This document shows positions 2,115-64,000 of a stretch of 64,000 bases of DNA, piece after piece. The position numbers and the translations under genes are program-made. The notes beneath the pieces were generated by a model. The model saw only the letters and a program-made list of their open reading frames with translations, searched no databases and was not told the DNA's origin. Every line of letters begins with the position of its first letter. Positions within the stretch are counted from its first letter, which is position 1. This stretch comes from Eledone cirrhosa (lineage: Eukaryota): positions 22,258,001 through 22,322,000 of the forward strand of contig OZ024756.1 of assembly GCA_964016885.1 (NCBI GenBank), read 5' to 3'.

Positions 2115-2191
2115 TAATAATAAATGTGAAGACTAAAACCCGAAGAGGGCTCGATAAGGATAATATATATAACTTTAATCTGTTTTATATA

Positions 2192-2246
<55 letters not shown>

Positions 2247-2248
<2 letters not shown>

Positions 2249-2434
2249 CGAAGGAAATGTGGTAAGGAACCAGGTGGACCATAACGCACCAAAGTACTCA
2301 ATACTTAGGGTAGTAGAGTGGGTAATAGGAACCAGTAAGACCCCGACGGCTGAGCTCAAGCCGTTTCGACGGCTAATGAGAATTAGCCGTCGAAACGGCT
2401 TGAGCTCAGCCGTCGGGGTCTTACTGGTTCCTAT
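2247..2434 (-). mobile_element. Family A palindromic mini-element in (TA)n (Penelope-like pLTR remnant)
   Basis: Perfect 53-bp inverted arms 2325-2377 and 2382-2434 with a GAGA loop, plus a 78-bp one-sided tail. Flanked by (TA)n on both sides, with 10 homologues in the window. Confidence 0.8.
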
Positions 2435-3163: not shown

Positions 3164-3900
3164 TTGGATTGGCAGAAAATGCTTTCCGGTATTTATTCCG
3201 GTTTATTACGTTCAAATCTCGCCAAGGTGTTGTTTGCTCTTCATCCATTCGTGTTCGATAAAATAAAGTACCAGTAATGCACTGGAGTCGATTTAATCGA
3301 CTTTCCCCTTCCCTTCAAATTGCTGGCCTTGTGCCTGAATCAGAAACGATTATTATTATTGCGATGCACTGGCAGTATCGGTAGAGCGTCGGGTACCGTG
3401 CTTTGCAGTATAGAATTATGCCCGTTTATGATCTGAGTTCAAATCTCGCCTAGGTTAGTTTTGCCTTTCATCCTGACGGGTTCGATATAATAAAGTACCA
3501 GTAATACACTGGATTCGATTTAATCGACTTTACCCTCACCCCAAATTGTTGGGCATGTGCCTAAAGTAGATATCATTGTAGTTACGGTCCTTTACGTTCT
3601 TTGCCTTTCATCCTGACGGGGTCGATAAAATAAAGTAACAGTAATTGTCTCTACTTTAGGCACAAGGCCAGCAATTGCCCAGTGCATTACTGGTACTTTA
3701 TGTTATCGACTCTGTAAGGATGAAAGGCAAAGTCAACTTCGGCGGGATTTGAACTCAGATCGTAAAGGGACGTAACTATGCTGGAAAGCATGGCGTCCGA
3801 CCCTCTACTGATACTGCCAATCCACCGCCCTTAAGTATAAAATAAAGTAACAGTAATGAACTGGGATAATTTTTGGCCTTGTGCCAAAAGTAGAACAATT
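3164..3900. mobile_element. Cluster of four S1 SINEs, including a minus-strand copy (3646-3830) nested in a plus-strand copy
   Basis: S1 motifs on both strands; a 21-bp duplication ATAAAATAAAGTAACAGTAAT at 3625-3645 and 3837-3857 flanks the inverted copy. Confidence 0.85.
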
Positions 3901-4372
3901 ATTATCATTATTTTTTATTCGTTTTTGCTTCCTTCTTTGTTTCATACCTCCAAGCAGAGACAGAAAAACAGAAAGAAACGGTGATCAACAAAAATGATAC
4001 TGATTCCATTTGGCAATGTTTGCTCACACGAAAACATTTTTTTCATCTTTAATATCTGAAATATTTTCCTCTTCGTCTTAATATAATTATCTTTGATAAA
4101 GTGAGAGAGTGAGCGACAGAGAGACCGAGAGAGAGAGAGATAGAGAAAATAAAGAAATAATGGGAAGTATAAGAGAGAGCGACTGAGGTATTGCTCTCTT
4201 TCTTTCACTTTTATCAAAGAATATTGACGCAGCATGATTAAAGTCGGCTGTCCTTCGAATGAGATTTTCACCACCTCACCTGTTTCCCCCTTGCTTATAT
4301 TATAAATGAAATATATAACTTATTTGGCTGAATGTTTTATACATTATGTGACATTATTTACATTGTAGATTA

Positions 4373-4790
4373 GGGCGGCGGATTGGCAGTATCGGTAGAG
4401 CGTCAGGCACCATGATTTGCAGCGTGGAGTTACGGCCCTTTATGATCTGAGTTCATATCTCGCCGAGGTTAACTTTGTCTTTCATCCTCATGCTCTCGTT
4501 AAAATAAAATACCACTCACGCACTGGGGTCGATTTAATCGACTTTCCCCTCCTCTAAAATCGCTGGCCTTGTGCATATATAAGAAACCATTATTTATATA
4601 TTGGCAGTGGATTGGCAGCATCGGTAGAGGGTCGGACACCATGCTTTCCAGCATAGTTAAGTCCCTTTACGATCTGAGTTCAAATCCCGCCGAGGTTGAC
4701 TTTGCCTTTCATCCTTACGGGGTCGATAAAATAAAGTACCAGTAATGCACTGGGTAATTGCTGGCCTTGTGCCAAATGTAGAAACAATTA
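4373..4790 (+). mobile_element. Two S1 SINEs (long variant with GTCGATTTAATCGAC palindrome, then short variant)
   Basis: Full A box, B box, core and tail in both copies. Confidence 0.85.
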
Positions 4791-7149: not shown

Positions 7150-7410
7150 CACCGCAATAGGACGTCACTGTGTGGTGCCAAAGGTCCTATCTTACACAGA
7201 ATAAGGAGGAGTTATTGCAATAGCCTGGGATTCAGAGGGCCCCAACTCTTCAAGAGGGTGAGAAGAAATTTGAGAGATGTGCATGATGTGGACATGGATG
7301 TCTTCAAGAAATATCTTGACGCCCTGCTATCCAGGATCCCGAATGAGCCTACAGCACTGTATGAAGGTAACCTAAGGGCAGCAGCAGCAGCACAACAAAC
7401 TCACTCCTAA
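7150..7410 (+). mobile_element. 3' end of a CR1-like LINE ORF2
   Basis: YCNSLGFRGPQLFKRVRRNLRDVHDVDMDVFKKYLDALLSRIPNEPT fits the CR1-group C-terminal motif (RGPxLFNxLPxxLR...FKxxLDxxLxxIPDEP). Confidence 0.7.
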
Positions 7411-8226
7411 ACCAATGGCCAGCCAACACAGGCTGGAGATAGAATGTGTAGCAAGAAGGGCGGTACCCCTGCATGGCCTCAGAAGCAACAAACTCACTCC
7501 TAAACCAATGGCCAGCCAACACAGGCTGGAGATAGAATGTGTAGCAAGAAGGTCGGTACCCCTGCATGGCCTCAGCAGCAACAAACTCACTCCTAAACCA
7601 ATGGCCAGCCAACACAGGCTGGAGATAGAATGTGTAGCAAGAAGGGCGGTACCCCTGCATGGCCTCAGAAGCAACAAACTCACTCCTAAACCAATGGCCA
7701 GCCAACACAGGCTGGAGATAGAATGTGTAGCAAGAAGGGCGGTACCCCTGCATGGCCTCAGAAGCAACAAACTCACTCCTAAACCAATGGCCAGCCAACA
7801 CAGGCTGGCGATAGAATGTGTAGCAAGAAGGTCGGTACCCCTGCATGGCCTCAGCAGCAACAAACTCACTCCTAAACCAATGGCCAGCCAACACAGGCTG
7901 GAGATAGAATGTGTAGCAAGAAGGGCGGTACCCCTGCATGGCCTCAGAAGCAACAAACTCACTCCTAAACCAATGGCCAGCCAACACAGGCTGGAGATAG
8001 AATGTGTAGCAAGAAGGGCGGTACCCCTGCATGGCCTCAGAAGCAACAAACTCACTCCTAAACCAATGGCCAGCCAACACAGGCTGGAGATAGAATGTGT
8101 AGCAAGAAGGGCGGTACCCCTGCATGGCCTCAGAAGCAACAAACTCACTCCTAAACCAATGGCCAGCCAACACAGGCTGGCGATAGAATGTGTAGCAAGA
8201 AGGTCGGTACCCCTGCATGGCCTCAG
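7392..8226 (+). repeat. 93-bp tandem array, 9 copies, derived from the LINE 3' end
   Basis: AGAATGTGTA recurs at 7441, 7534 and so on (period 93, i.e. 31 aa in ORF 7415-8287); only 3 variable sites. Confidence 0.95.
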
Positions 8227-18299: not shown

Positions 18300-18747
18300 A
18301 AAAGACTGATAACTTTAAAAAATCCGGTACAATGCAGTAGAAAAATACGCAGGGCAAATGGCATTTCAGTCATGAAATACAATGTTAGAATAACTGGGTA
18401 AAATATTACCTCGTTTTGTATGTCATCATTTGCCCTTCCTAGGATACCACGTAGCCCTGTTATGTTATAATACGCTGGGCAAAACTTGACTTTGTTTTGT
18501 TCTATTTTTCATCATTTGCCCTTCCTATTTTTCTACCACACAGCCCTGAAATATGTTAGAATATATTGGGTAAAACATACTTTCGTTTTGTTTTGTATGT
18601 CATCATTTGCCCTTCCTAGGATACCACATAGCCCTGAAATATGTTAGAATACACTGAGCAAAACTTTATTTTGTTTTATTTGTCATCATTTACCTTTTGT
18701 ATTTTTCTTCTGCATTGTACTGGCTTTTTGAAAATTATTAGTTTTTT
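18300..18747. mobile_element. Foldback/MITE-like element with ~60-bp TIRs and four internal ~85-bp tandem repeats
   Basis: AAAAGACTGATAACTTTAAAAAATCCGGTACAATGCAGTAGAAAAATAC is mirrored at 18700-18747; internal unit ATGTTAGAATA...CATCATTTGCCCTTCCTAG...AGCCCTG. Confidence 0.65.
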
Positions 18748-18923: not shown

Positions 18924-19770
18924 GAGACTTCTGGTATCCTTGGTCCTAGGGCTACCTCCCTACTCACCACCATAGGCGCTGAGCTGGCTAGCTGCAGGTG
19001 TGAAGCTCGCGAGATGGAATGGCTCTTCCAGCGTATATCCCTGACCATCAACCGGGGAAACGCCTTCTCTATTCTGTCCGCCTGGGCGGCTAGCATGTAG
19101 GATCCTATTTGTTCATAATTGTTTCTACTTTGGGCACAAGGCAGAGCAATTACCCAGTACATTACTGGTACTTTATTTTATCGACCCCGTAAGGATGAAA
19201 GACAAAGTTAACCTCGGCGGGATTTGAACTCAGACCGCAAAGGGGCGAAACTATGCTGCAAAGCATAGCGTCCGACCCTCTACCGATACTGCCAATCCAT
19301 CGCTATTTGCGCATAATAATTGTTTCTACGTTAGCCACAAGGCTAGCAATTACCCAGTGCATTACTGGTACTTTATTTTGTCGACCCCGTAAGGATGAAA
19401 GGCAAAGTTAACCTCGGCGGGATTTGAACTCAGACCATAAAGGGCCGTAACTCTTTGCTGCAAACATGGCGTCCGACCCTCTACCGGTACCGCCAATCCA
19501 CATAATTGTTTCTACGTTAGGCACAAGGCCGGTAAATTACCCAGTGCATTACTGGTATTTTATTTTATCGACCCCGTAAGGATGAAAGGCAAAGTTAACC
19601 ACGGCGGGATTTGAACTCAGAATGGCAAGGGCCGTAACTCTATACGTCAAAGCATGGCGTCCGACCCTCTACCGATACTGCCAATCCACATAATAATGAG
19701 AGATGGGGTGGGCGAGAGAGATGGAGGCGATGAGAGTGGGTGTTCGGTTCCTCTGTGCCCGGACCTAATG
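18924..19770 (+). mobile_element. CRE-clade LINE 3' end interrupted by three SINEs
   Basis: 18924-19100 translates ETSGILGPRATSLLTTIGAELASCRCEAREMEWLFQRISLTINRGNAFSILSAWAASM*; the 3' UTR resumes at about 19690. Confidence 0.8.
19118..19689 (-). mobile_element. Three tandem S1 SINEs
   Basis: Three reverse-complement copies separated by CATAAT-containing junctions. Confidence 0.9.
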
Positions 19771-19879
19771 TACGTGTGTGGGTATGTTTACTTCTATTCA
19801 TTCGATATTTTGGGCTTGGTATTCACTTGTCAATAAACATTACTTAACCCTTCATCATTCCTGGATTAAATTATTAACA

Positions 19880-20190
19880 TACAAAATTGTTGGCCTTGTG
19901 TCTAAATCAGAAACCATTATTATTTCTTTAACGCGGTACCAGTAATGCACTGGATAATTGCTGGCCTTGTGCCAAAAGTAGAAACAATTATTTCTTTAAT
20001 GCGGTGATTGGTAGTATCGGTAGAGGGTCGGACGCCATGCTTTCCAGCATAGTTACGTCCCTTTACGATCCGAGTTCAAATCCCGCCGAGGTTGGCTTTG
20101 CCTTTCATCCTTACGGGGTCGATAAAATAAAGTACCAGTAATGCAATGGGTAATTGCTGGCCTTGTGTCTAAAGTAGAAACCATTATTAT
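19880..20190 (+). mobile_element. S1 SINE plus two 5'-truncated tails
   Basis: Full copy at about 20002-20185 preceded by tail-only fragments. Confidence 0.8.
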
Positions 20191-26379: not shown

Positions 26380-26592
26380 AACAAAGAGGGTGTGGTAAGA
26401 TACCAGGTGGACCATAACGCACCAGAGTACTCAATACTTAGGGTAGTAGAGTGGGTAATAGGAAAAGAGTCAAGACCCCGACGGATGAGGTCCGACACTC
26501 TCGTACGTTATAGTACACTGGTATGATACCGTTCGGATCTAGCTGTCGAAACGGTCTGAGATCAGCCGTCAGGGTCCTGACTGTTTTTCTAT
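26380..26592 (-). mobile_element. Family A palindromic mini-element (asymmetric centre)
   Basis: Family A tail plus arms GACCCCGACGG and CCGTCAGGGTC; carries CTAGCTGTC-GAAAC-GGTC. Confidence 0.75.
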
Positions 26593-33474: not shown

Positions 33475-33975
<501 letters not shown>

Positions 33976-34619
33976 TATAATACAGTGTGTGTGCGTGCGT
34001 GCGTACGTGTATATATATATATATATATTAATATATACATTTTTCGTGGTTATAACGAAAATGCATATTGTGCACAAAAGCATTGGTGAGAGCGCTCTAC
34101 AAAAGTGTAAAGAACGAAATAACTCGGTTACGATTCTCTTCGCAGACTTAGATAATGGCCGACTTAGGTCTCACGTGACCATAATCATCTATATGGAGAT
34201 TGACTGCGAGGAATGTGATGTATTCCTGCATAGAAAACATTACATACCTCTTTACTTAAATACTTCGCATTAAGAACACACACGCGCACACATATGCATG
34301 CGCGGGCATGCATCTTTACACAAACACACAGACACACACGCACAATTAAATATATGGTTTCAGTACTTGCAACTACACTAGATTTAAATGTTGTTGTAGT
34401 GGAGATGTTAGTTACTCAATTTGTTTTGTTTTTGTTTGTTTTTTGTTTTGTTTTGTTTTTTTTCTTTTATTCTGTCTTTTACAAGAGATGTTCGTTTTGA
34501 CATTAAGATGGCATTTTAACACAATGATATTTCCCAACTCTCTTTCTTCTGCTAGTTAGATCACAATCATCATCATCACCATCACCATTATCGTCATATT
34601 ATTATTATCATATTATTAT

Positions 34620-41496: not shown

Positions 41497-41940
41497 GTCT
41501 GTCTGTCTGTCTGTCTGTGTCTGTCTGTCTGTGTCTGTCTGTCTGTGTCTGTCTGTCTGTGTCTGTCTGTGTGTCTGTGTATGTCTGTGTGTCTGTGTAT
41601 GTCTGTGTGTCTGTGTATGTCTGTGTGTCTGTGTATGTCTGTGTGTCTGCATGTGTACGTATGTGTGTGTATGTATGTATGTGTCAGTGTGTGTGTGTAT
41701 GTGCACCTGCATATGTAAGTATGGGAGTGCCTCTGTTTATCTTAATGTGTAGATTTCACTGGTTAAGTCCGGCACGAAATCAGTTGACTCATGTTCGATT
41801 TAATTGATTTTTATCTTCGGCAATAGGTTTCTCTCATAAAATAGGATGAAGCCAAGCCAAGACTTTTCAGAGAAATTTGCTAAGAAGGATTGTCTCCATA
41901 ATAGTAAAACGCTGTTTTAATATTACAGGTACAACACGTG

Positions 41941-44305
41941 AGTCACTTGCAGTCACTTGCAGTCACCTACAGTCATTTACAGTCACCTACAGTCACTTAC
42001 AGTCACCTACAGTCACCTACAGTCACTTGCAGTCACTTGCAGTCACCTACAGTCACTTACAGTCACTTACAGTCACTTACAGTCACTTACAGTCACCTAC
42101 AGTCACTTACAGTCACCTACAGTCACCTACAGTCACCTACAGTCACTTGCAGTCACCTACAGTCACTTACAGTCACTTACAGTCACTTACAGTCACTTAC
42201 AGTCACCTACAGTCACTTACAGTCACCTACAGTCACCTACAGTCACTTGCAGTCACTTGCAGTCACCTACAGTCACTTACAGTCACTTACAGTCACTTAC
42301 AGTCACCTACAGTCACTTACAGTCACCTACAGTCACCTACAGTCACTTGCAGTCACTTGCAGTCACCTACAGTCACTTACAGTCACTTACAGTCACTTAC
42401 AGTCACTTACAGTCACTTACAGTCACCTACAGTCACTTACAGTCACCTACAGTCACCTACAGTCACTTACAGTCACCTACAGTCACCTACAGTCACCTAC
42501 AGTCACTTACAGTCACCTACTTACAGTCACTTACAGTCACTTACAGTCACCTACAGTCACTTACAGTCACCTACAGTCACTTACAGTCACCTACAGTCAC
42601 TTACAGTCACCTACAGTCACCTACAGTCACTTACAGTCACCTACAGTCACCTACAGTCACTTGCAGTCACTTGCAGTCACCTACAGTCACTTACAGTCAC
42701 TTACAGTCACTTACCACTTACAGTCACTTACAGTCACTTACAGTCACCTACAGTCACCTACAGTCACCTACAGTCACTTACAGTCACCTACAGCCACCTA
42801 CAGTCACCTACAGTCACTTACAGTCACCTACTTACAGTCACTTACAGTCACTTACAGTCACCTACAGTCACTTACAGTCACCTACAGTCACTTACAGTCA
42901 CCTACAGTCACTTACAGTCACCTACAGTCACCTACAGTCACTTACAGTCACCTACAGTCACCTACAGTCACTTGCAGTCACTTGCAGTCACCTACAGTCA
43001 CTTACAGTCACTTACAGTCACTTACAGTCACTTACAGTCACTTATAGTCACCTACAGTCACCTACAGTCACCTACAGTCACTTACAGTCACCTACTTACA
43101 GTCACTTACAGTCACTTACAGTCACCTACAGTCACTTACAGTCACCTACAGTCACTTACAGTCACCTACAGTCACCTACAGTCACTTACAGTCACTTACA
43201 GTCACCTACAGTCACTTGCAGTCACTTGCAGTCACCTACAGTCACTTACAGTCACCTACAGTCACCTACAGTCACTTACAGTCACCTACAGTCACCTACA
43301 GTCACTTACAGTCACCTACTTACAGTCACTTACAGTCACTTACAGTCACTTACAGTCACTTACAGTCACTTACAGTCACCTACAGTCACTTACAGTCACT
43401 TACAGTCACCTACAGTCACTTACAGTCACTTACAGTCACCTACAGTCACCTACAGTCACTTACAGTCACTTACAGTCACTTACAGTCACTTACAGTCACT
43501 TACAGTCACCTACAGTCACCTACAGTCACCTACAGTCACCTACAGTCACTTACAGTCACTTACAGTCACTTACAGTCACCTACAGTCACTTACAGTCACC
43601 TACAGTCACTTACAGTCACTTACAGTCACTTACAGTCACCTACAGTCACTTACAGTCACCTACAGTCACTTGCAGTCACTTGCAGTCACCTACAGTCACT
43701 TACAGTCACCTACAGTCACCTACAGTCACTTACAGTCACCTACAGTCACCTACAGTCACTTACAGTCACCTACTTACAGTCACTTACAGTCACTTACAGT
43801 CACTTACAGTCACTTACAGTCACTTACAGTCACCTACAGTCACTTACAGTCACTTACAGTCACCTACAGTCACTTACAGTCACTTACAGTCACCTACAGT
43901 CACCTACAGTCACTTACAGTCACTTACAGTCACTTACAGTCACTTACAGTCACTTACAGTCACCTACAGTCACCTACAGTCACCTACAGTCACATACAGT
44001 CACTTACAGTCACTTACAGTCACTTACAGTCACCTACAGTCACTTACAGTCACCTACAGTCACTTACAGTCACTTACAGTCACTTACAGTCACCTACAGT
44101 CACTTACAGTCACTTACAGTCACTTACAGTCACCTACAGTCACTTACAGTCACTTACAGTCACCTACAGTCACTTACAGTCACTTACAGTCACTTACAGT
44201 CACTTACAGTCACCTACAGTCACTTACAGTCACCTACAGTCACCTACAGTCACTTACAGTCACCTACAGTCACTTACAGTCACCTACAGTCACTTACAGT
44301 CACCT
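41941..44305. repeat. 10-bp satellite (AGTCAC[T/C]T[A/G]C)n, about 236 units
   Basis: Direct inspection; three main variants and a few 4-nt slips. The long TVTYSHLQS ORFs are artefacts. Confidence 0.97.
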
Positions 44306-44398
44306 GTAAAAACAATGCATATCACTGCCGAAAAGGATAGAGGTCGTCAGTAATACATTTGGGATAATTGCTGGCCTTGTGCCAAAAGTAGAAACAAT

Positions 44399-44540: not shown

Positions 44541-44606
44541 TATTTCATTATATATATTTCAGGGATATCATATTAAAAATATGGTATGCCTTCTTCAGAC
44601 AAAATA
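44541..44606 (-). ncRNA. Minimal type I hammerhead ribozyme (family B element 44500-44690)
   Basis: Minus strand: UAUUUUGU-CUGAAGA-[AGGCAUACCAUAUU uuu AAUAUGAUAUCCCU]-GAA-AUAUAUAU-A/AUGAAAUA. Core intact, 8-bp stem I, palindromic stem III. Confidence 0.7.
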
Positions 44607-44821: not shown

Positions 44822-44901
44822 GCTATCTGAAGAGCTATATCTTTCCATTTGAAATTCACTGAATTTCCAATCTTTTGATTAGCGAAACCGTCGGTCATGG
44901 C
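44822..44901 (+). ncRNA. Type I hammerhead ribozyme with extended stem II
   Basis: GCUAU-CUGAAGA-GCUA...UAGC-GAA-ACCG-U-CGGU-C/AUGGC. All conserved core nucleotides present, GUC cleavage triplet, and stem I GCUAU/AUGGC pairs. Confidence 0.75.
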
Positions 44902-44974
44902 ACTAGAAGAGGTAAATATTTAAATCGTATTTTAATTTATTCACAAGATTGTTTAATGTTTACTTGTTCCGCTC

Positions 44975-45021
<47 letters not shown>

Positions 45022-46645: not shown

Positions 46646-47267
46646 AGGGACATAGAGAGAGAGAGACAGTCAGAAAAGAGAGATAGTCAGAGAGAGAAAG
46701 AGAGAAAGAGACAGAGAGAGAAAGAAACAGAGATAAAAAAACAGAGTGAAAGAAACAGAGAGAAAACGACAGAGAGAAAGAGACAGAGAGAAGGGAGACA
46801 GAGAGAAGGGAGACAGAGAGAGGGGAGACATAGAGAAAGAGAGAGAGAAAGAGACAGAGAGAAAGCGACATAGAGAAAGAGACAGAGAGAGTGAATGCGA
46901 TTAAGTGAGTGTCAGTGTGTCCATCCTCTACAGACAAGCAGATTATATGTCAATGTAAAACGATCAATTACTATCCAAGTTTGTTGCTATTACTTTTCAA
47001 TTTCTAAATGTTTTTTGTCATTGACTTCAGTGATACGCTACAAGACGTTGGCACAAGAATCTCCAATATTTGTCCAATTTCGTTTCTTATTTCCAAGTTT
47101 ATTTCAATCCCGGTATTCCTTTTTCATTCGTAAGCAGGAAAAATATTTGTGTTTCGGCGATTTGCTGCACACATACCTGCATACACACCAACCATATCTG
47201 CATACGCACATACGTATATTTACAATTTACACACCTGCAGAAGTGTATATATATATATATATATATA

Positions 47268-47447
47268 TAGGAAAAAGTATGACCCCGACGGCAGAGCTCA
47301 AGCCGTTCCGACGGCTATTTCTGTATGACCCCGACTGAGCTCTGCCGTCGGTGTCATACTTTTTCCTATTTCCCACTCTACTACCCTAAGCGTTGAGTAC
47401 TCTGGTGCGTTATGGTCCATCTGGTTCCTTACCACAATTCCTTTGTT
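47268..47447 (+). mobile_element. Family A palindromic mini-element
   Basis: TAGGAAAAAGTATGACCCCGACGG arm, its inverse and the tail; (TA)n flanks. Confidence 0.8.
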
Positions 47448-48026
47448 ATATATATATATAGACACAAATATACATTTACATATATATACATATAAATAAA
47501 CCTATATATATATATATATATACATATATATACCTATACATACATATAAATACACCTACACATACATATAAAGGTACCTATATATATTTTTACATACACC
47601 TATACATACATATAAATATACCTATATATATACATATACCTATATATACATATACCTATATATACATATAAATATACCTATACATATAACTATATATATA
47701 TTATACATATAACTATATATATATACATATAACTATATATATATACATATAACTATATATATATACATATAACTATATATATATACATATAACTATATAT
47801 ATATATACATATAACTATATATATATACACATAACTATATATATATATATACACATAACTATATATATATATATATATACACATAACTATATATATATAT
47901 ACACATAACTATATATATATATACACATAACTATATATATATACACATAACTATATATATATATATATACACATAACTATATATATATACATATAACTAT
48001 ATATATATATATATAATAATAATATA

Positions 48027-48269
48027 TAAGATCAAAAGATGTTTAAAAGAGTTCTATGTATTTTAATATGCGCATTTCAAAAACAAATATCGTCATGCAA
48101 TAAAATTTGCGTTTTCGTCAGATAAAATAGGGAGACATGACATGAAGGTTAAAACACACTTGTGAATAGTGCAGTTTTAAATCAACATACTATTATTGCA
48201 TGATGATATTTGTTTTTGAAATGCGCATAATAAAATACATGGAACTCTTTTAACCATCTTTTGATCTTA
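48027..48269. mobile_element. Inverted-repeat element with hammerhead-like motif in both arms
   Basis: ~77-bp arms 48027-48103 and 48193-48269; TGATGA-TATTTGTTTTT-GAA-ATGCGCAT-A. Confidence 0.6.
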
Positions 48270-49633: not shown

Positions 49634-49870
49634 TATATTAATAAGACGAATTCCAACTTTGTCTGATTTACTCGTTTTATTTACAATCCTTTAAAATATA
49701 TAATGGTATTATAATGAAATAGTATGATAGAATATTAAATTCTATCATACTATTTCATTATAATACCATTATATATTTTAAAGGATTGTAAATAAAGTGA
49801 GTAAATCAGACAAAGTTGGAATTCCTCTTATTAATATAATCTTCTATACACAATCATACACACCCGTGTA
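49634..49870. mobile_element. ~200-bp near-perfect palindrome plus tail in (TA)n
   Basis: Arms about 49634-49733 and 49739-49838, 5-nt loop, about 3 mismatches. Confidence 0.75.
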
Positions 49871-50816: not shown

Positions 50817-50862
50817 TATATACACACACACAAATTTATATATTAGCATATATATATATATA

Positions 50863-51058
50863 TAGGAACGAGTAGGACCCCGACGGCTGAGCTCAAGCCA
50901 CCTCGACGGCCAATTCCGGCCAGTCCAGAATTGGCCGTCGAGGCGGCTTGAGCTCAGCCGTTGAGGTCCTACTCGTTCCTATTACCCACTCTACTAGCCT
51001 AAGTATTGAGTACTTTGGTGCGTTATGGTCCACCTGGTTCCTTACCACATTTCCTTCG

Positions 51059-51060
<2 letters not shown>
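50863..51060 (+). mobile_element. Family A palindromic mini-element
   Basis: Arms TAGGAACGAGTAGGACCCCGACGG and inverse, with tail ending TTCCTTCGTT(AT)n. Confidence 0.8.
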
Positions 51061-55033: not shown

Positions 55034-55125
55034 CTTACACATGGATACATTTACAGATAAGTAGATACACATACATGTGTATCTACTTATGTGTGTGTAT
55101 ATATATATATATAGAGAGAGAGAGA

Positions 55126-55316
55126 TAGGAGAAAGTATGACCCCGACGGCAGAGCTCAAGCTCTTTCGACGGCTATTTCTGGACAGAAATAGCCGTCGAA
55201 ACGGCTTGAGGTCTGCCGTCGGGGTCATACTTTTTCCTATTTCTCACTACTACCCTAAGTATTGAGTACTCTGGTGCGTTATGGTCCATCTGGTTTCTTA
55301 CCACAATTCCTTTGTT
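55126..55316 (+). mobile_element. Family A palindromic mini-element
   Basis: Centre TTTC-GACGGCTATTTCT-ggac-AGAAATAGCCGTC-GAAAC; tail present. Confidence 0.85.
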
Positions 55317-57530: not shown

Positions 57531-57659
57531 ACAAAGTTTGTTTTATAAATATAGATAGAGACGTACCCATGAAAATCATTCATATATAGTCGTATCATAC
57601 GACTATATATATATGATACGACTATATATGTATTATATATAAGTATATAAGTAATTATA

Positions 57660-57815
57660 TAGGAAAAGAGTCGACGTCTAGTTCTGAATGCAGCTATCGA
57701 AACGGTCGGAGCTCAGCCGTCAGAGTCCTGACTCTTTTCCTATTACCCACTCTACTATCCTTAGTATCGAGTACTCTGGTACGTTATGGTCCACCTGGTT
57801 CCCTACCACACTTTC

Positions 57816-57819
<4 letters not shown>
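57660..57819 (+). mobile_element. Family A element with short inverted arm
   Basis: TAGGAAAAGAGTC and GACTCTTTTCCTA arms, GAAACGGTC and tail. Confidence 0.75.
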
Positions 57820-57875
<56 letters not shown>

Positions 57876-58171
57876 CATATATATACATATATATATATAC
57901 ATACATATATAATTACATATATATATACATATATATATATAGATACATATATATATACATATATATATACATATATATATATACATATATATATATACAT
58001 ATATATATATACATATATATATATACATATATATATACACATACATATATATACATATATATATACATATATATATACATATATATATATACATACATAT
58101 ATATATACATATATATACATATATATATATATACATAAGTATTTGTGTGGGAGAGAAAGAAAGGGAGTGCT

Positions 58172-58238
<67 letters not shown>

Positions 58239-58530
58239 GTAGATTTGTATACGCATGCATTTATGAGTGTTTCACGTGTGTGAATGGTGTATGCATGTAC
58301 ATCAATGAGTTTGTGCCACCTACATGAATTTGCATATGCATGCATGTACGAGTTTTAGCCACGTGATATGTCGTTTTACGCTATTAACAATTTTCAATTT
58401 ATGATATAACTTGTAAAATAAAATGTGATTACTGAGATAATTCATTTTCGTTTAGATGGCTTGTGTTTATATCGATATAATTTGTTTTTCCATTTAGTGG
58501 TTTTGTTTTAAGCATTGATTTTTGTACATA

Positions 58531-58822
58531 TCGATGACATAGTGAATGAATGTTGCAGAAAACGCAATTTCATATTTTTAGGAGTGTTTATGAGGACATA
58601 TAACTAGTGAATCTGTGTAAACATCAATTTTGGGTCTATAGAGAAATATGTTAATTTGTGAATTATACAGCGGTAGTTTGTGTACCTCTCGATAACACAG
58701 TGAATGAGTGTTGCAGAAAACGCAATTTCATATTTTTATGAATGTATATTAGAACATATATCAAGTGAATCTGTGTAAACATCAATTTTGTGTCTATAGA
58801 GAAATATGTTAATCTGTGGATT
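58531..58822. repeat. ~158-bp tandem duplication
   Basis: AGTGAATGA.TGTTGCAGAAAACGCAATTTCATATTTTTA...GTCTATAGAGAAATATGTTAAT occurs twice. Confidence 0.85.
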
Positions 58823-59225
58823 GGGCAGCAGTGATGAAACCTTTAGAATAAAAACACTAGTGAAACAATTCTAAATGAACACTTCGACAATTTGCAGCAG
58901 AGTTAATGGTATCTTCTATCAATGATTCCCCCAATTGGAAAAAAGTGACAAATTTGGATATAATGAGTTTCAAACAAATTGACTGAACAACACAAACTGC
59001 AGCTTATAGATGTGTTTTCAGCTTTATTATCCTAATCATAGCATAATCCATGTCCATATCTTCCTTATTTTTCCTTATTAATCTTCGCTTTCTCATTTCA
59101 TAACTCTTTACTTTCTCTCACTACACACCCATTCAAAATAACTGATCATCGTGAGATAGCGTAGATTAACAAGGTTCAGAATTTAGCTATGATAATATAT
59201 ATATAGAGAGAGAGGGAGAGATAGA

Positions 59226-59390
59226 TAGGAAAAGAGTCAGGACCCCGACGGTTGAGCTCCGGTCGTTTCGACTAGCTGTGGAAACAGCCCGAGCTCAGCC
59301 GTCGGGGTCCTGACTTTTTTCCGATTACCCACACTACTACCCTAAGTATCGAATACTCTGGTGCATTATGGTCCACCTGGTTTCTTACCA

Positions 59391-59438
<48 letters not shown>

Positions 59439-59843
59439 GGTATTAACGTGTGCTTATACCGTTCCGGCAAACCAAAGATGTCGGTTCGTCTCCCATGTAC
59501 GTCAATACTCCATTTTTCCATTCACAGGTTTTTCTTTTTAAATACCAACTAACAGACTAATTCTAGTTAGTCAAACATCGTGTAAGCATATGTTTCTACC
59601 TAATTTTCAAATTCGGTAACCGTTTCTAAACAAAGTCTGCTTTGTGTCTTCCTATTTATATACATACACACACAGACATATATATATTACGACGGAAGTG
59701 AGGTAAGGAACCAGGTGTACCATAACGCACCAGAGTAGTCGATACTTAAGAAAGTAGAGTGGGTAATAGGAAAAGAGTCAGGACCCCGTGTTCAGAACTA
59801 GCTGTGGAAACGGCCGCAGCTCAGCCGTCGGGGTCCTGACTAT

Positions 59844-59890
<47 letters not shown>

Positions 59891-60069
59891 AAAATGTTTA
59901 ACCCCGACGGCAGAGCTCAAGCTGTTACGACGGCTATTTCTAGCCGTCGAAATAGCTTGAGCTCTACCGTCGGGGTTAAACTTTTTCCTATTACACACTC
60001 TACTACCCTAAGTATTGAGTACTCTGGTGCGTTATGGTTCATCTGGTTCCTTACCACACCTTCTTCGTG

Positions 60070-60071
<2 letters not shown>
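59226..60071. mobile_element. Three family A elements (59226-59393 +, 59689-59848 -, 59887-60071 +)
   Basis: Each has CCCCGACGG/CCGTCGGGG-type arms and the conserved tail, separated by (TA)n. Confidence 0.8.
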
Positions 60072-60102
<31 letters not shown>

Positions 60103-60266
60103 TAGATAATTTAATATATCAACTAACATAAGCGCACAGATGCACGCCCATGCTAGCAAATACACAGGTTATGTCATAGTACCTAGGTGGTTCAATGCAG
60201 GAGAATGCAGTACAATAATATAAAAGACGTAAAATAAGAAAATATTTTTTAAAACAATTTTATACA

Positions 60267-60402
<136 letters not shown>

Positions 60403-60670
60403 TGACTCTCCCGTCGTATACAGGCGTATGATTGTTCAACAGTTTCATTTCTTATGGTTTTGCCTTAAAGGACAATTTAGTCCAGCTCCTGATTTACGCA
60501 TCAAGCCGCCTAGAAAACAGCTGACTGGATTTTGTACGGATCTAGGTGTTAGATCCTAGATCACGAACAAGGATCTGACGATTTTTCAAATTTCATTATA
60601 CCTTCATGGCAGACAGTTCTCCATTTTCACGGCCAGCCACAAGTGCTTCAAAAGAAGTATATATATATAT

Positions 60671-61135
<465 letters not shown>

Positions 61136-61149
61136 TATAGTATTAATTA

Positions 61150-61530
61150 TACTATTTATGGTTATGCAAATACAAAAACCTTTTGAGTTAAATAGCTCAA
61201 TGTAAAAACATCAGATGATTTACAGAGCAGTTATATGAATTATAAGAAGAATCCAAACCTCGGTTTGGAGGAAACAGTTGTAAGCATAAAAATGTTTTGA
61301 ACAGTTCTTTGATTATTATAATTCATATATATATATATATATATATTCCTTTATTAGATACCTTTTATACAATTAACACCTGATGATGTCACCAAGATCC
61401 TACGGAACCTGGTCATTGAACTGTGGATAGTGTTTGTAATAAATCTTTGAAGGAATTTCACCAGTCCAGCCTCCTGTCATTTTACTCAATAATTAACACC
61501 GTTCTCGCACCACCAACAAGGTTCAACATA
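61150..61530 (+). mobile_element. Degenerate Penelope-like 3' end (possible ORF remnant, hammerhead-like motif and polyA signal)
   Basis: CTGATGA-TG...C-GGAACCTGGTC at 61380-61414, AATAAA at about 61438 and a tail; upstream a frameshifted W..K..T...N.LN-like trace. Confidence 0.4.
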
Positions 61531-63971: not shown

Positions 63972-64000
63972 AACGAAGGAAATGTGGTAAGGAACCAGGT
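63972..64000 (-). mobile_element. Family A element tail (cut by window edge)
   Basis: AACGAAGGAAATGTGGTAAGGAACCAGGT is identical to 2247-2275. Confidence 0.85.

Follow-up and report, generated by a model that had tools for sequence, protein, structure and literature searches.

A very abundant head-to-head repeat with a hammerhead-like half, plausibly a miniature Penelope-like element

The window analysed here, a stretch of 64,000 nucleotides of non-coding, animal-type DNA rich in microsatellites, carries a short palindromic repeat, family A, in ten full copies and one copy cut by the window end (63972). A BLAST search with the copy at position 2247 as query recovered the repeat at 11/11 positions of the original prediction, and a profile built from 19 arms found no extra copies in the 64-kb window. 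The full copies measure 160–210 nt (repeat length ~190 bases) and sit between microsatellites; in total, family A takes up 1,875 of the 64,000 bases, or 2.9% of the window. The tail end adjoins a TA run in 11/11 copies, and the short end adjoins either (TA)n or (TC)n. A reading frame with reverse transcriptase (RT) and GIY-YIG domains was found in no copy. A short repeat at 1921–2010 is, we presume, reminiscent of an octopus SINE.

In copy 2247, two ~55-nt arms form a perfect palindrome, to which a 78-nt tail is attached, and the short and long arms show 0/41 mismatches. Its parts are listed below.

2187..2246, no strand assigned: (TA)n target forming the left flank of copy 2247; a shorter (TA)n run follows after 2434.
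2247..2324, minus strand: tail, 78 nt, on one side only, putatively the stretch between two reverse-transcription start sites.
2325..2377, minus strand: long (tail-bearing) arm, unit +8 to +60.
2339..2368, minus strand: hammerhead-like 3' half in the long arm, from the descriptor scan.
2378..2434, plus strand: short (inverted, tail-less) arm, reaching +5, with its TTCCTAT end at (TA)n.
2391..2420, plus strand: hammerhead-like 3' half in the short arm, from the descriptor scan and RNAalifold, with C at 2391, GAAA at 2392–2395, helix III at 2396–2399/2409–2412, the palindromic loop III at 2400–2408, UC at 2413–2414 and the helix I 3' strand at 2415–2420.

The same plan recurs throughout the family. 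Each copy consists of two units placed head to head in (TA)n, with a ~140-nt unit and a ~78-nt tail on one side; the inverted, 5'-truncated arm and the restriction of the tail to one end hold for 10/10 full copies. In the GAAA sense, the unit extends over ~140 nt from a G, here called G1, to the tail end, where TT[CT]GT(T) directly adjoins (TA)n. The long arm ends at this tail end, and the short arm ends ~60 nt from G1, at a TTCCTA site. The fixed junction of the short arm with the microsatellite, already described in the original prediction, lies at the same site in 10/10 copies, reading TT[CT]CTAT in 8/10, with a variant in 59689 and an equivalent AT-rich site in 33785. G1 is found in the context GTTCAGAAC (59790), GTTCGGATC (26531), GTCCAGAA (50923 and 55184) or GTCTGCAAC (33919), and is kept across four subfamilies. 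The consensus folds with a small hairpin near the tail end and with similar energies in the sense (−13.7) and antisense (−14.5) orientations, which do not fix the strand, so the polarity of the unit rests on the truncation pattern and the motif. The remaining copies are the following.

26381..26592, minus strand: copy 26380; long arm truncated at +24, short arm whole as far as G1 (26531, plus strand).
26496..26530, plus strand: centre filler of copy 26380, a diverged piece of its own tail in short-arm sense, directly before G1.
33785..33985, minus strand: copy 33785, of a divergent subfamily; GAAT for GAAA on both arms, long arm to G1 (33919).
47267..47447, plus strand: copy 47268; long arm cut at +27, 12-nt duplicated filler at 47324–47335.
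50862..51060, plus strand: copy 50863; long arm to G1 (50923), GGCCA before G1, three mirrored A>G changes.
55125..55316, plus strand: copy 55126; short arm to G1 (55184, minus strand).
57659..57818, plus strand: copy 57660; short arm with an internal deletion, yet reaching +2.
59225..59390, plus strand: copy 59226; arms differ at 5/35 columns, loop II gone.
59688..59849, minus strand: copy 59689; short arm complete to G1 (59790, plus strand), long arm starting at the predicted cleavage site, +40/+41.
59886..60070, plus strand: copy 59887.
63972..64000, minus strand: tail end of the copy cut by the window end, 29 nt identical to 2247.

Family A is real and very abundant. In the public run X1, 15,899 contigs fall on copy 26380, the reference for contig mapping, and summed depth reaches 4.4 million over its tail versus 5 over its private centre filler, a sum to be taken as a sign of great abundance and not as a copy number. 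Runs X5, X7 and X8 yield 22, 5 and 1 contigs on family A, numbers too small to speak for other species. A scan with the family A pattern gave no matches in metagenome contigs and none in prokaryote genomes. It also returned 2 viral and 18 metagenome loci with little match outside the seed; the best profile match outside the window spans 36 nt, and the flanks of the four loci that were read are unrelated. These loci were taken as chance and rejected as relatives of family A.

The two arms share an inner limit, the wall at G1, in the place expected for loop II of a hammerhead. Inner ends were read by hand and then tallied against a G1 defined from these same copies: 5 of the 20 arm ends lie at +1 and 12 within +1 to +5, five more fall at +8 to +15, and the last three at +24, +27 and +40. 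Copy 50863 alone may pass G1, by 5 nt, and no arm goes further. Among the 15 X1 joints listed (of 79), 13 link scattered positions at 26414–26472 to 26531–26535, in a table biased toward centres that contigs can cross, and the filler between tail and centre is 1–4 letters long in 7 of the 10 rows listed. Because these contig joints and short fillers agree, the clustering at G1 is not just an alignment edge. Loose contig ends before G1 agree at only 0.38 over 97 contigs and therefore hold no dominant shared sequence upstream of G1.

The two arms are unequal at the centre. The short arm reaches further in than the long arm in 7/10 copies, 2247 included, and in X1 contigs long arms that break off within the tail are joined to short arms running all the way to G1. 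All ten centres are different. The centre of GTTTC-stem-GAAAC described in the original prediction is present, with variants, on both arms of six copies; one arm is without it in 26380, 47268, 57660 and 59689. The filler of 26380 matches its own tail at 28/35 columns (score 40, reached by 0/2000 shuffles) and has single-copy depth in X1 contigs. We did not take it to prove a circular or tandem RNA, because the same filler would arise if the cDNA's own tail served as template.

The arm probably descends from a hammerhead, an origin that we regard as likely, in a register other than the one first proposed. The site read in the original prediction as GAAAC-G-GUC has the sequence GAAACGGCC in 95% of contig depth, with C at 26555 in 192,524 of 203,007 depth units, and GAAACGGTC occurs in only 2/10 copies. 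The register that fits is C-GAAA-CGGC-(9-nt loop with a palindromic middle)-GCCG-UC followed by GGGGUC, with C-GAAA, a 5-bp helix III and GUC as its elements, and in it the C/T difference at 26555 is a C-G to U-G change inside helix III. The claim that a hammerhead 3' half is recognisable was upheld: NUH is found in 18/18 arms, GAAA in 10/16 and all five helix III pairs in 9/16. The descriptor was chosen post hoc, after the sequence had been seen; its strict form passes in 5/16 arms only, it matches 14, 28 and 41 of 5000 shuffles of three units on either strand, and it also matches six non-family places in the window. RNAalifold recovers four helix III pairs unprompted, and single-unit folds form helix III only in part (0.45, 0.0 and 0.6–0.8). 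No excess conservation of the core and helix III over the loops was detected (mirrored change 5/15 versus 9/21, p 0.73), and GAAA is altered on both arms in two copies.

The 5' core is absent, as the original prediction had stated. CUGANGA (or UUGANAA) matched in no copy, nor is CUGANGA present in the 10 tail-to-centre filler rows listed or in the loose-end consensus shown, and no longer family copy bearing it was seen in the window or the listed contigs. Family A is therefore not a ribozyme as it stands, and its hammerhead half would be a vestige. Rfam gave no hammerhead at gathering score in the window and none up to E 10 in 57600–61200 or 26380–26592, a search of low sensitivity that also missed the whole cores at 44827 and 60861. 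The 5' strands of helices I and II are supplied by the inverted arm only, apart from 5 nt before G1 in 50863 that fit helix II. Two further arrangements, a type II hammerhead with its core downstream in the tail and a core restored across the tail-to-G1 junction, were discarded, no core strand being found for either. In the C-GAAA register, G1 to +9 would represent loop II plus its closing pairs, so that the arms would meet at helix II, and the inverted arm would occupy the place of the 5' strands and CUGANGA. The predicted position of the palindrome axis at helix II/loop II agrees with the 12 arm ends close to G1, and the term 'stem II' for what lies at the axis is partly circular, as any palindrome forms a stem there.

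Resemblance between the two arms of a copy was central to the original prediction, and it holds on average. The mean distance is 0.091 to the own partner arm versus 0.237 to foreign arms (41 columns, in the nine copies where both arms could be used, excluding 57660; the pairs are not independent), but the own arm is often not the closest: it is strictly closest in 3/9 copies, tied in two and beaten in 4/9, by one or two foreign arms in three of these and ranking only at the median in 26380 (6/24 mismatches). Two of the three mirrored variants described as copy-specific are marks of subfamilies, CGAGTAGG recurring after a tail in one contig of run X7 and CCAGTAAG likewise in two contigs of X5; these contigs differ elsewhere from the long arms of 50863 and 2247. 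Most mirrored variants recur in other window copies and in X5/X7 contigs, and those private within the window number three in 50863 (all A>G), two in 59887 and six in 33785, the divergent copy. The arms thus appear to match largely through subfamily variants, and their likeness therefore points to one source per insertion, not necessarily to self-copying. The two arms of 26380, like those of 59226, are distinguished by variants common to other copies, as expected from two templates.

Two side observations concern the arms. In a single copy, 50863, the A>G changes look ADAR-like: GAAA has two of them, TAG has one, and the A after G is spared. An ADAR origin is a lead only, and the GGCCA before G1 fits a DNA-level compensatory change equally. 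Divergence between copies is faster in the paired arm region than in the tail (0.225 versus 0.140), for which tail selection and arm conversion are candidate causes.

Other short (TA)n elements in the window also have inverted arms and whole hammerhead cores.

44827–44975: complete hammerhead core whose loop II is long; a (TA)n junction follows after ~85 nt.
48021–48268: (TA)n-embedded element; hammerhead-type core at 48121 (minus strand), palindromic TGCGCA.
60672–61032: (TA)n-embedded palindrome whose outer arms, 119 nt long, are perfect and enclose a further perfect hairpin.

The scan accepts whole cores, helices I and II included, at 44827 and 60861, the second being a U3-A8 variant of a kind described in PMC4209133. 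In 60672–61032, a whole minimal hammerhead (60857–60894, palindromic CCGG) lies in one arm, the other arm having lost it through an internal deletion, and the axis is 42 nt upstream of the core. In 48021–48268, where the core was read by hand and failed the descriptor scan, the inverted arm stops at the border between loop II and the helix II 5' strand (48192); the axis is thus at helix II in one of the two comparator elements. With inverted arms and cores in these neighbours, insertions of the inverted type known from Penelope-like elements (PLEs) are therefore common in the window.

Further structures are scattered through the window. Core-like words occur at 44598 and 57523 (minus strand). 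A near-perfect AT-rich palindrome with ~90-nt arms (49641–49830) belongs to a different family, and more inverted pairs lie at 3656–4776 and 18300–18747. A tandem array at 7393–8226 comprises 9 x 93-nt units that are 98% alike, with no hammerhead core found in it, and a ~170-nt unit at 19115–20190 forms three direct copies followed by an inverted one. The long array of a ~9-nt unit at 41850–44340 has open frames of 800 codons and by appearance is not a gene. The frame at 7153–7383, for which no homologue of similar length was found, resembles what we take to be the end of a LINE protein.

We consider, on a modest balance of probability, that family A is a miniature PLE, non-autonomous and with half a hammerhead left as a vestige, whose insertions each join two cDNAs. 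Mobilisation of the PLE type is likely, and the joining of two cDNAs is somewhat more likely than not. The link to PLEs is likely and comes from the layout. The PLE literature describes an inverted 5'-truncated copy, a tail at one end and a (TA)n bias (PMC8557442), as well as head-to-head Penelope copies with junction palindromes, for which self-priming was proposed (PMC3846280). A purified PLE protein, a predicted dimer, is reported to cut and extend both strands and to start at two internal RNA sites bounding the tail, with no RNA ends at the ribozyme site in the case of PAc (PMC11167929).

Under this proposal, the unit would be a non-autonomous remnant of a PLE 3' end. Both (TA)n strands would be nicked by a trans-acting RT/endonuclease from a PLE; the first nick would prime at the tail end and the second at the internal site ~60 nt from G1. 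Both cDNAs would be extended toward G1, the RNA 5' end, in the position of loop II, stopping there or short of it, and their 3' ends would be joined via short homologies or templated fillers. The arms would be alike since both come from the same source gene or subfamily. Fillers templated from the element are present as the tail piece in 26380 and the 12-nt duplication in 47268. Uneven arm ends could also be imitated by deletions that hit palindrome centres later. We infer the enzyme, the RNA and the cause of G1, and for the last of these an RNA 5' end is favoured over processing or the apex of a parental hairpin. Neither an autonomous partner nor a CUGANGA-bearing parent was found in the window or the listed contigs.

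The main rival, which we judge unlikely, is the copying of ready-made palindromes from hairpin transcripts of earlier copies, with centres lost by template jumps or later deletion and gene conversion keeping the arms alike. The fixed short-arm end would then need no second start site, the faster divergence of arms than of tails is what mirrored conversion would give, and three contigs that reach 26525 or show similar letters before G1 hint at a shared centre. Against this, the centres differ in 10/10 copies, within subfamilies too, one-arm variants are not common to the short arms of sibling copies, and G1 is conserved across the four subfamilies.

Self-priming on an antisense RNA with its 3' end at G1 is doubtful. 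Such self-priming is in print for Penelope head-to-head palindromes (PMC3846280) and would yield a fixed inner end, matching arms and either arm as the longer one, but alone it leaves unexplained why both outer ends are fixed at the target. Target priming from sense RNA on both strands was reported in later in vitro work (PMC11167929), and the differing arm variants in 26380 and 59226 would be unexpected. Somewhat less probable still is the snap-back of the original prediction, in which a tail-primed cDNA stalls in helix II, folds back on itself and is extended as far as TTCCTA. In its favour, the meeting point of the arms is at helix II, the 5 nt preceding G1 in 50863 fit the helix II 5' strand that the model expects, and the inverted arm of a different element ends at the loop II/5' strand border (48192). 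A simple snap-back, however, predicts a single loop in long-arm sense and a long arm that is always the deeper one. That loop is found in 0/10 centres, and the short arm is the deeper one in 7/10, including 2247 with its 0 arm mismatches; contigs pair complete short arms with long arms ending in the tail, and the axis of the element at 60672–61032 lies upstream of its core. Snap-back is already contradicted, unless shortening after insertion hit most long arms.

If family A were a non-autonomous DNA element of MITE or Helentron type, its ends being fixed and its internal deletions variable, the outer ends, the variable centre, the TA-rich targets and the small hairpin near the tail end would be accounted for. 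Any target-site duplication would be masked by the (TA)n. This reading is very improbable: terminal inverted repeats are not present at both ends, the tail lies outside the repeat on one side, the deletions end at one fixed inner base, and the hammerhead-like half and the PLE-type neighbours are left unexplained. Least probable is a tRNA-type polymerase III SINE inserted by LINE twin priming, which the fixed G start, the ~140-nt length, the very high abundance and what we take to be loose A-box-like and T-loop-like words would suit, but a tRNA-like head was not found (ARAGORN 0; no Rfam tRNA match to E 10), a T4–T6 run lies at about +52 in 7/10 copies, and twin priming on one RNA gives non-overlapping pieces.

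Set beside known systems, the proposed miniature PLE combines familiar and distinct traits. EN+ PLEs (Penelope/Poseidon, Neptune, Hydra, Naiad), as described in PMC8557442 and PMC3846280, share with family A the head-to-head 5'-truncated inversion, the one-ended tail, (TA)n and the junction palindrome. Family A differs in having no reading frame, a unit of ~140 nt, both arms ending at one inner base and its share of the window, and its 78-nt tail compares with 30–40 nt published for PLEs (PMC8557442). PAc, from Anolis Poseidon and studied in vitro, resembles it in a tail bounded by two start sites, extension of both target strands and an AT-rich target, and its minimal active RNA of about +20 to +172 is near the family A unit in size (PMC11167929); the start sites of family A are deduced from insertion ends alone.

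The type I hammerheads of PLE pLTRs (PMC4209133) have the same C-GAAA, palindromic loop III and NUH, and a comparable position, ahead of the tail-less end by ~20 nt and of the tail end by ~100 nt, whereas family A is without CUGANGA and the 5' strands. Its 5-bp helix III is like those of fungal and protist variants, the minimal motifs of metazoans having 0–2 bp (PMC4209133). The non-LTR retrozymes of animals (10.64898/2026.07.22.740005) and the non-autonomous Chlamys, MRC1 among them (PMC8557442), are also short non-coding PLE derivatives; they are arranged head to tail, and the retrozyme unit holds a whole ribozyme, whereas family A is dispersed head to head with half a core. We rejected family A as a non-LTR retrozyme, as it occurs in single head-to-head pairs; one tail-to-G1 junction is present, in 26380.

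The inverted layout, the idea of self-priming and non-autonomous PLE derivatives are already known. A short head-to-head family with half a hammerhead has no description in the literature searched, and family A may already bear a name in repeat databases. 'Twin', an octopus SINE label and a candidate name, has 0 occurrences in two cephalopod papers. Automatic annotation likely files family A under SINE, MITE or unknown.

How the inverted structures of PLEs form is named an open question in PMC8557442, with self-priming (PMC3846280) and two-strand priming (PMC11167929) as the candidates, and family A offers very many natural junctions with fixed landmarks. A PLE derivative that spreads without a working ribozyme would agree with the in vitro finding that cleavage is dispensable.

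We also put forward a bolder and tentative reading, slightly less probable than the copying of ready-made palindromes. Here a catalytically dead, ~140-nt RNA with half a hammerhead, starting at loop II, would be the minimal parasite of the Penelope enzyme. Its palindromic loop III would pair two RNAs, both to be copied by the dimeric RT; the CUGANGA of the parent may cut in trans (59689 starts at the predicted cut), and ~3% of the genome would consist of 55-bp hairpins. Among the species compared, octopus has the top share of near-perfect double-strand loci, and octopus repeats were left out of annotation-based analyses (PMC5625713), which is relevant here only for an octopus host. Family A would make up a large group of editing substrates that fold on themselves. 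Should the host be an octopus and the parasite reading be true, the family could be a main source of the animal's unusual wealth of near-perfect double-stranded RNA and of A-to-I hyper-editing, and copy 50863 would be an edited RNA written back into DNA.
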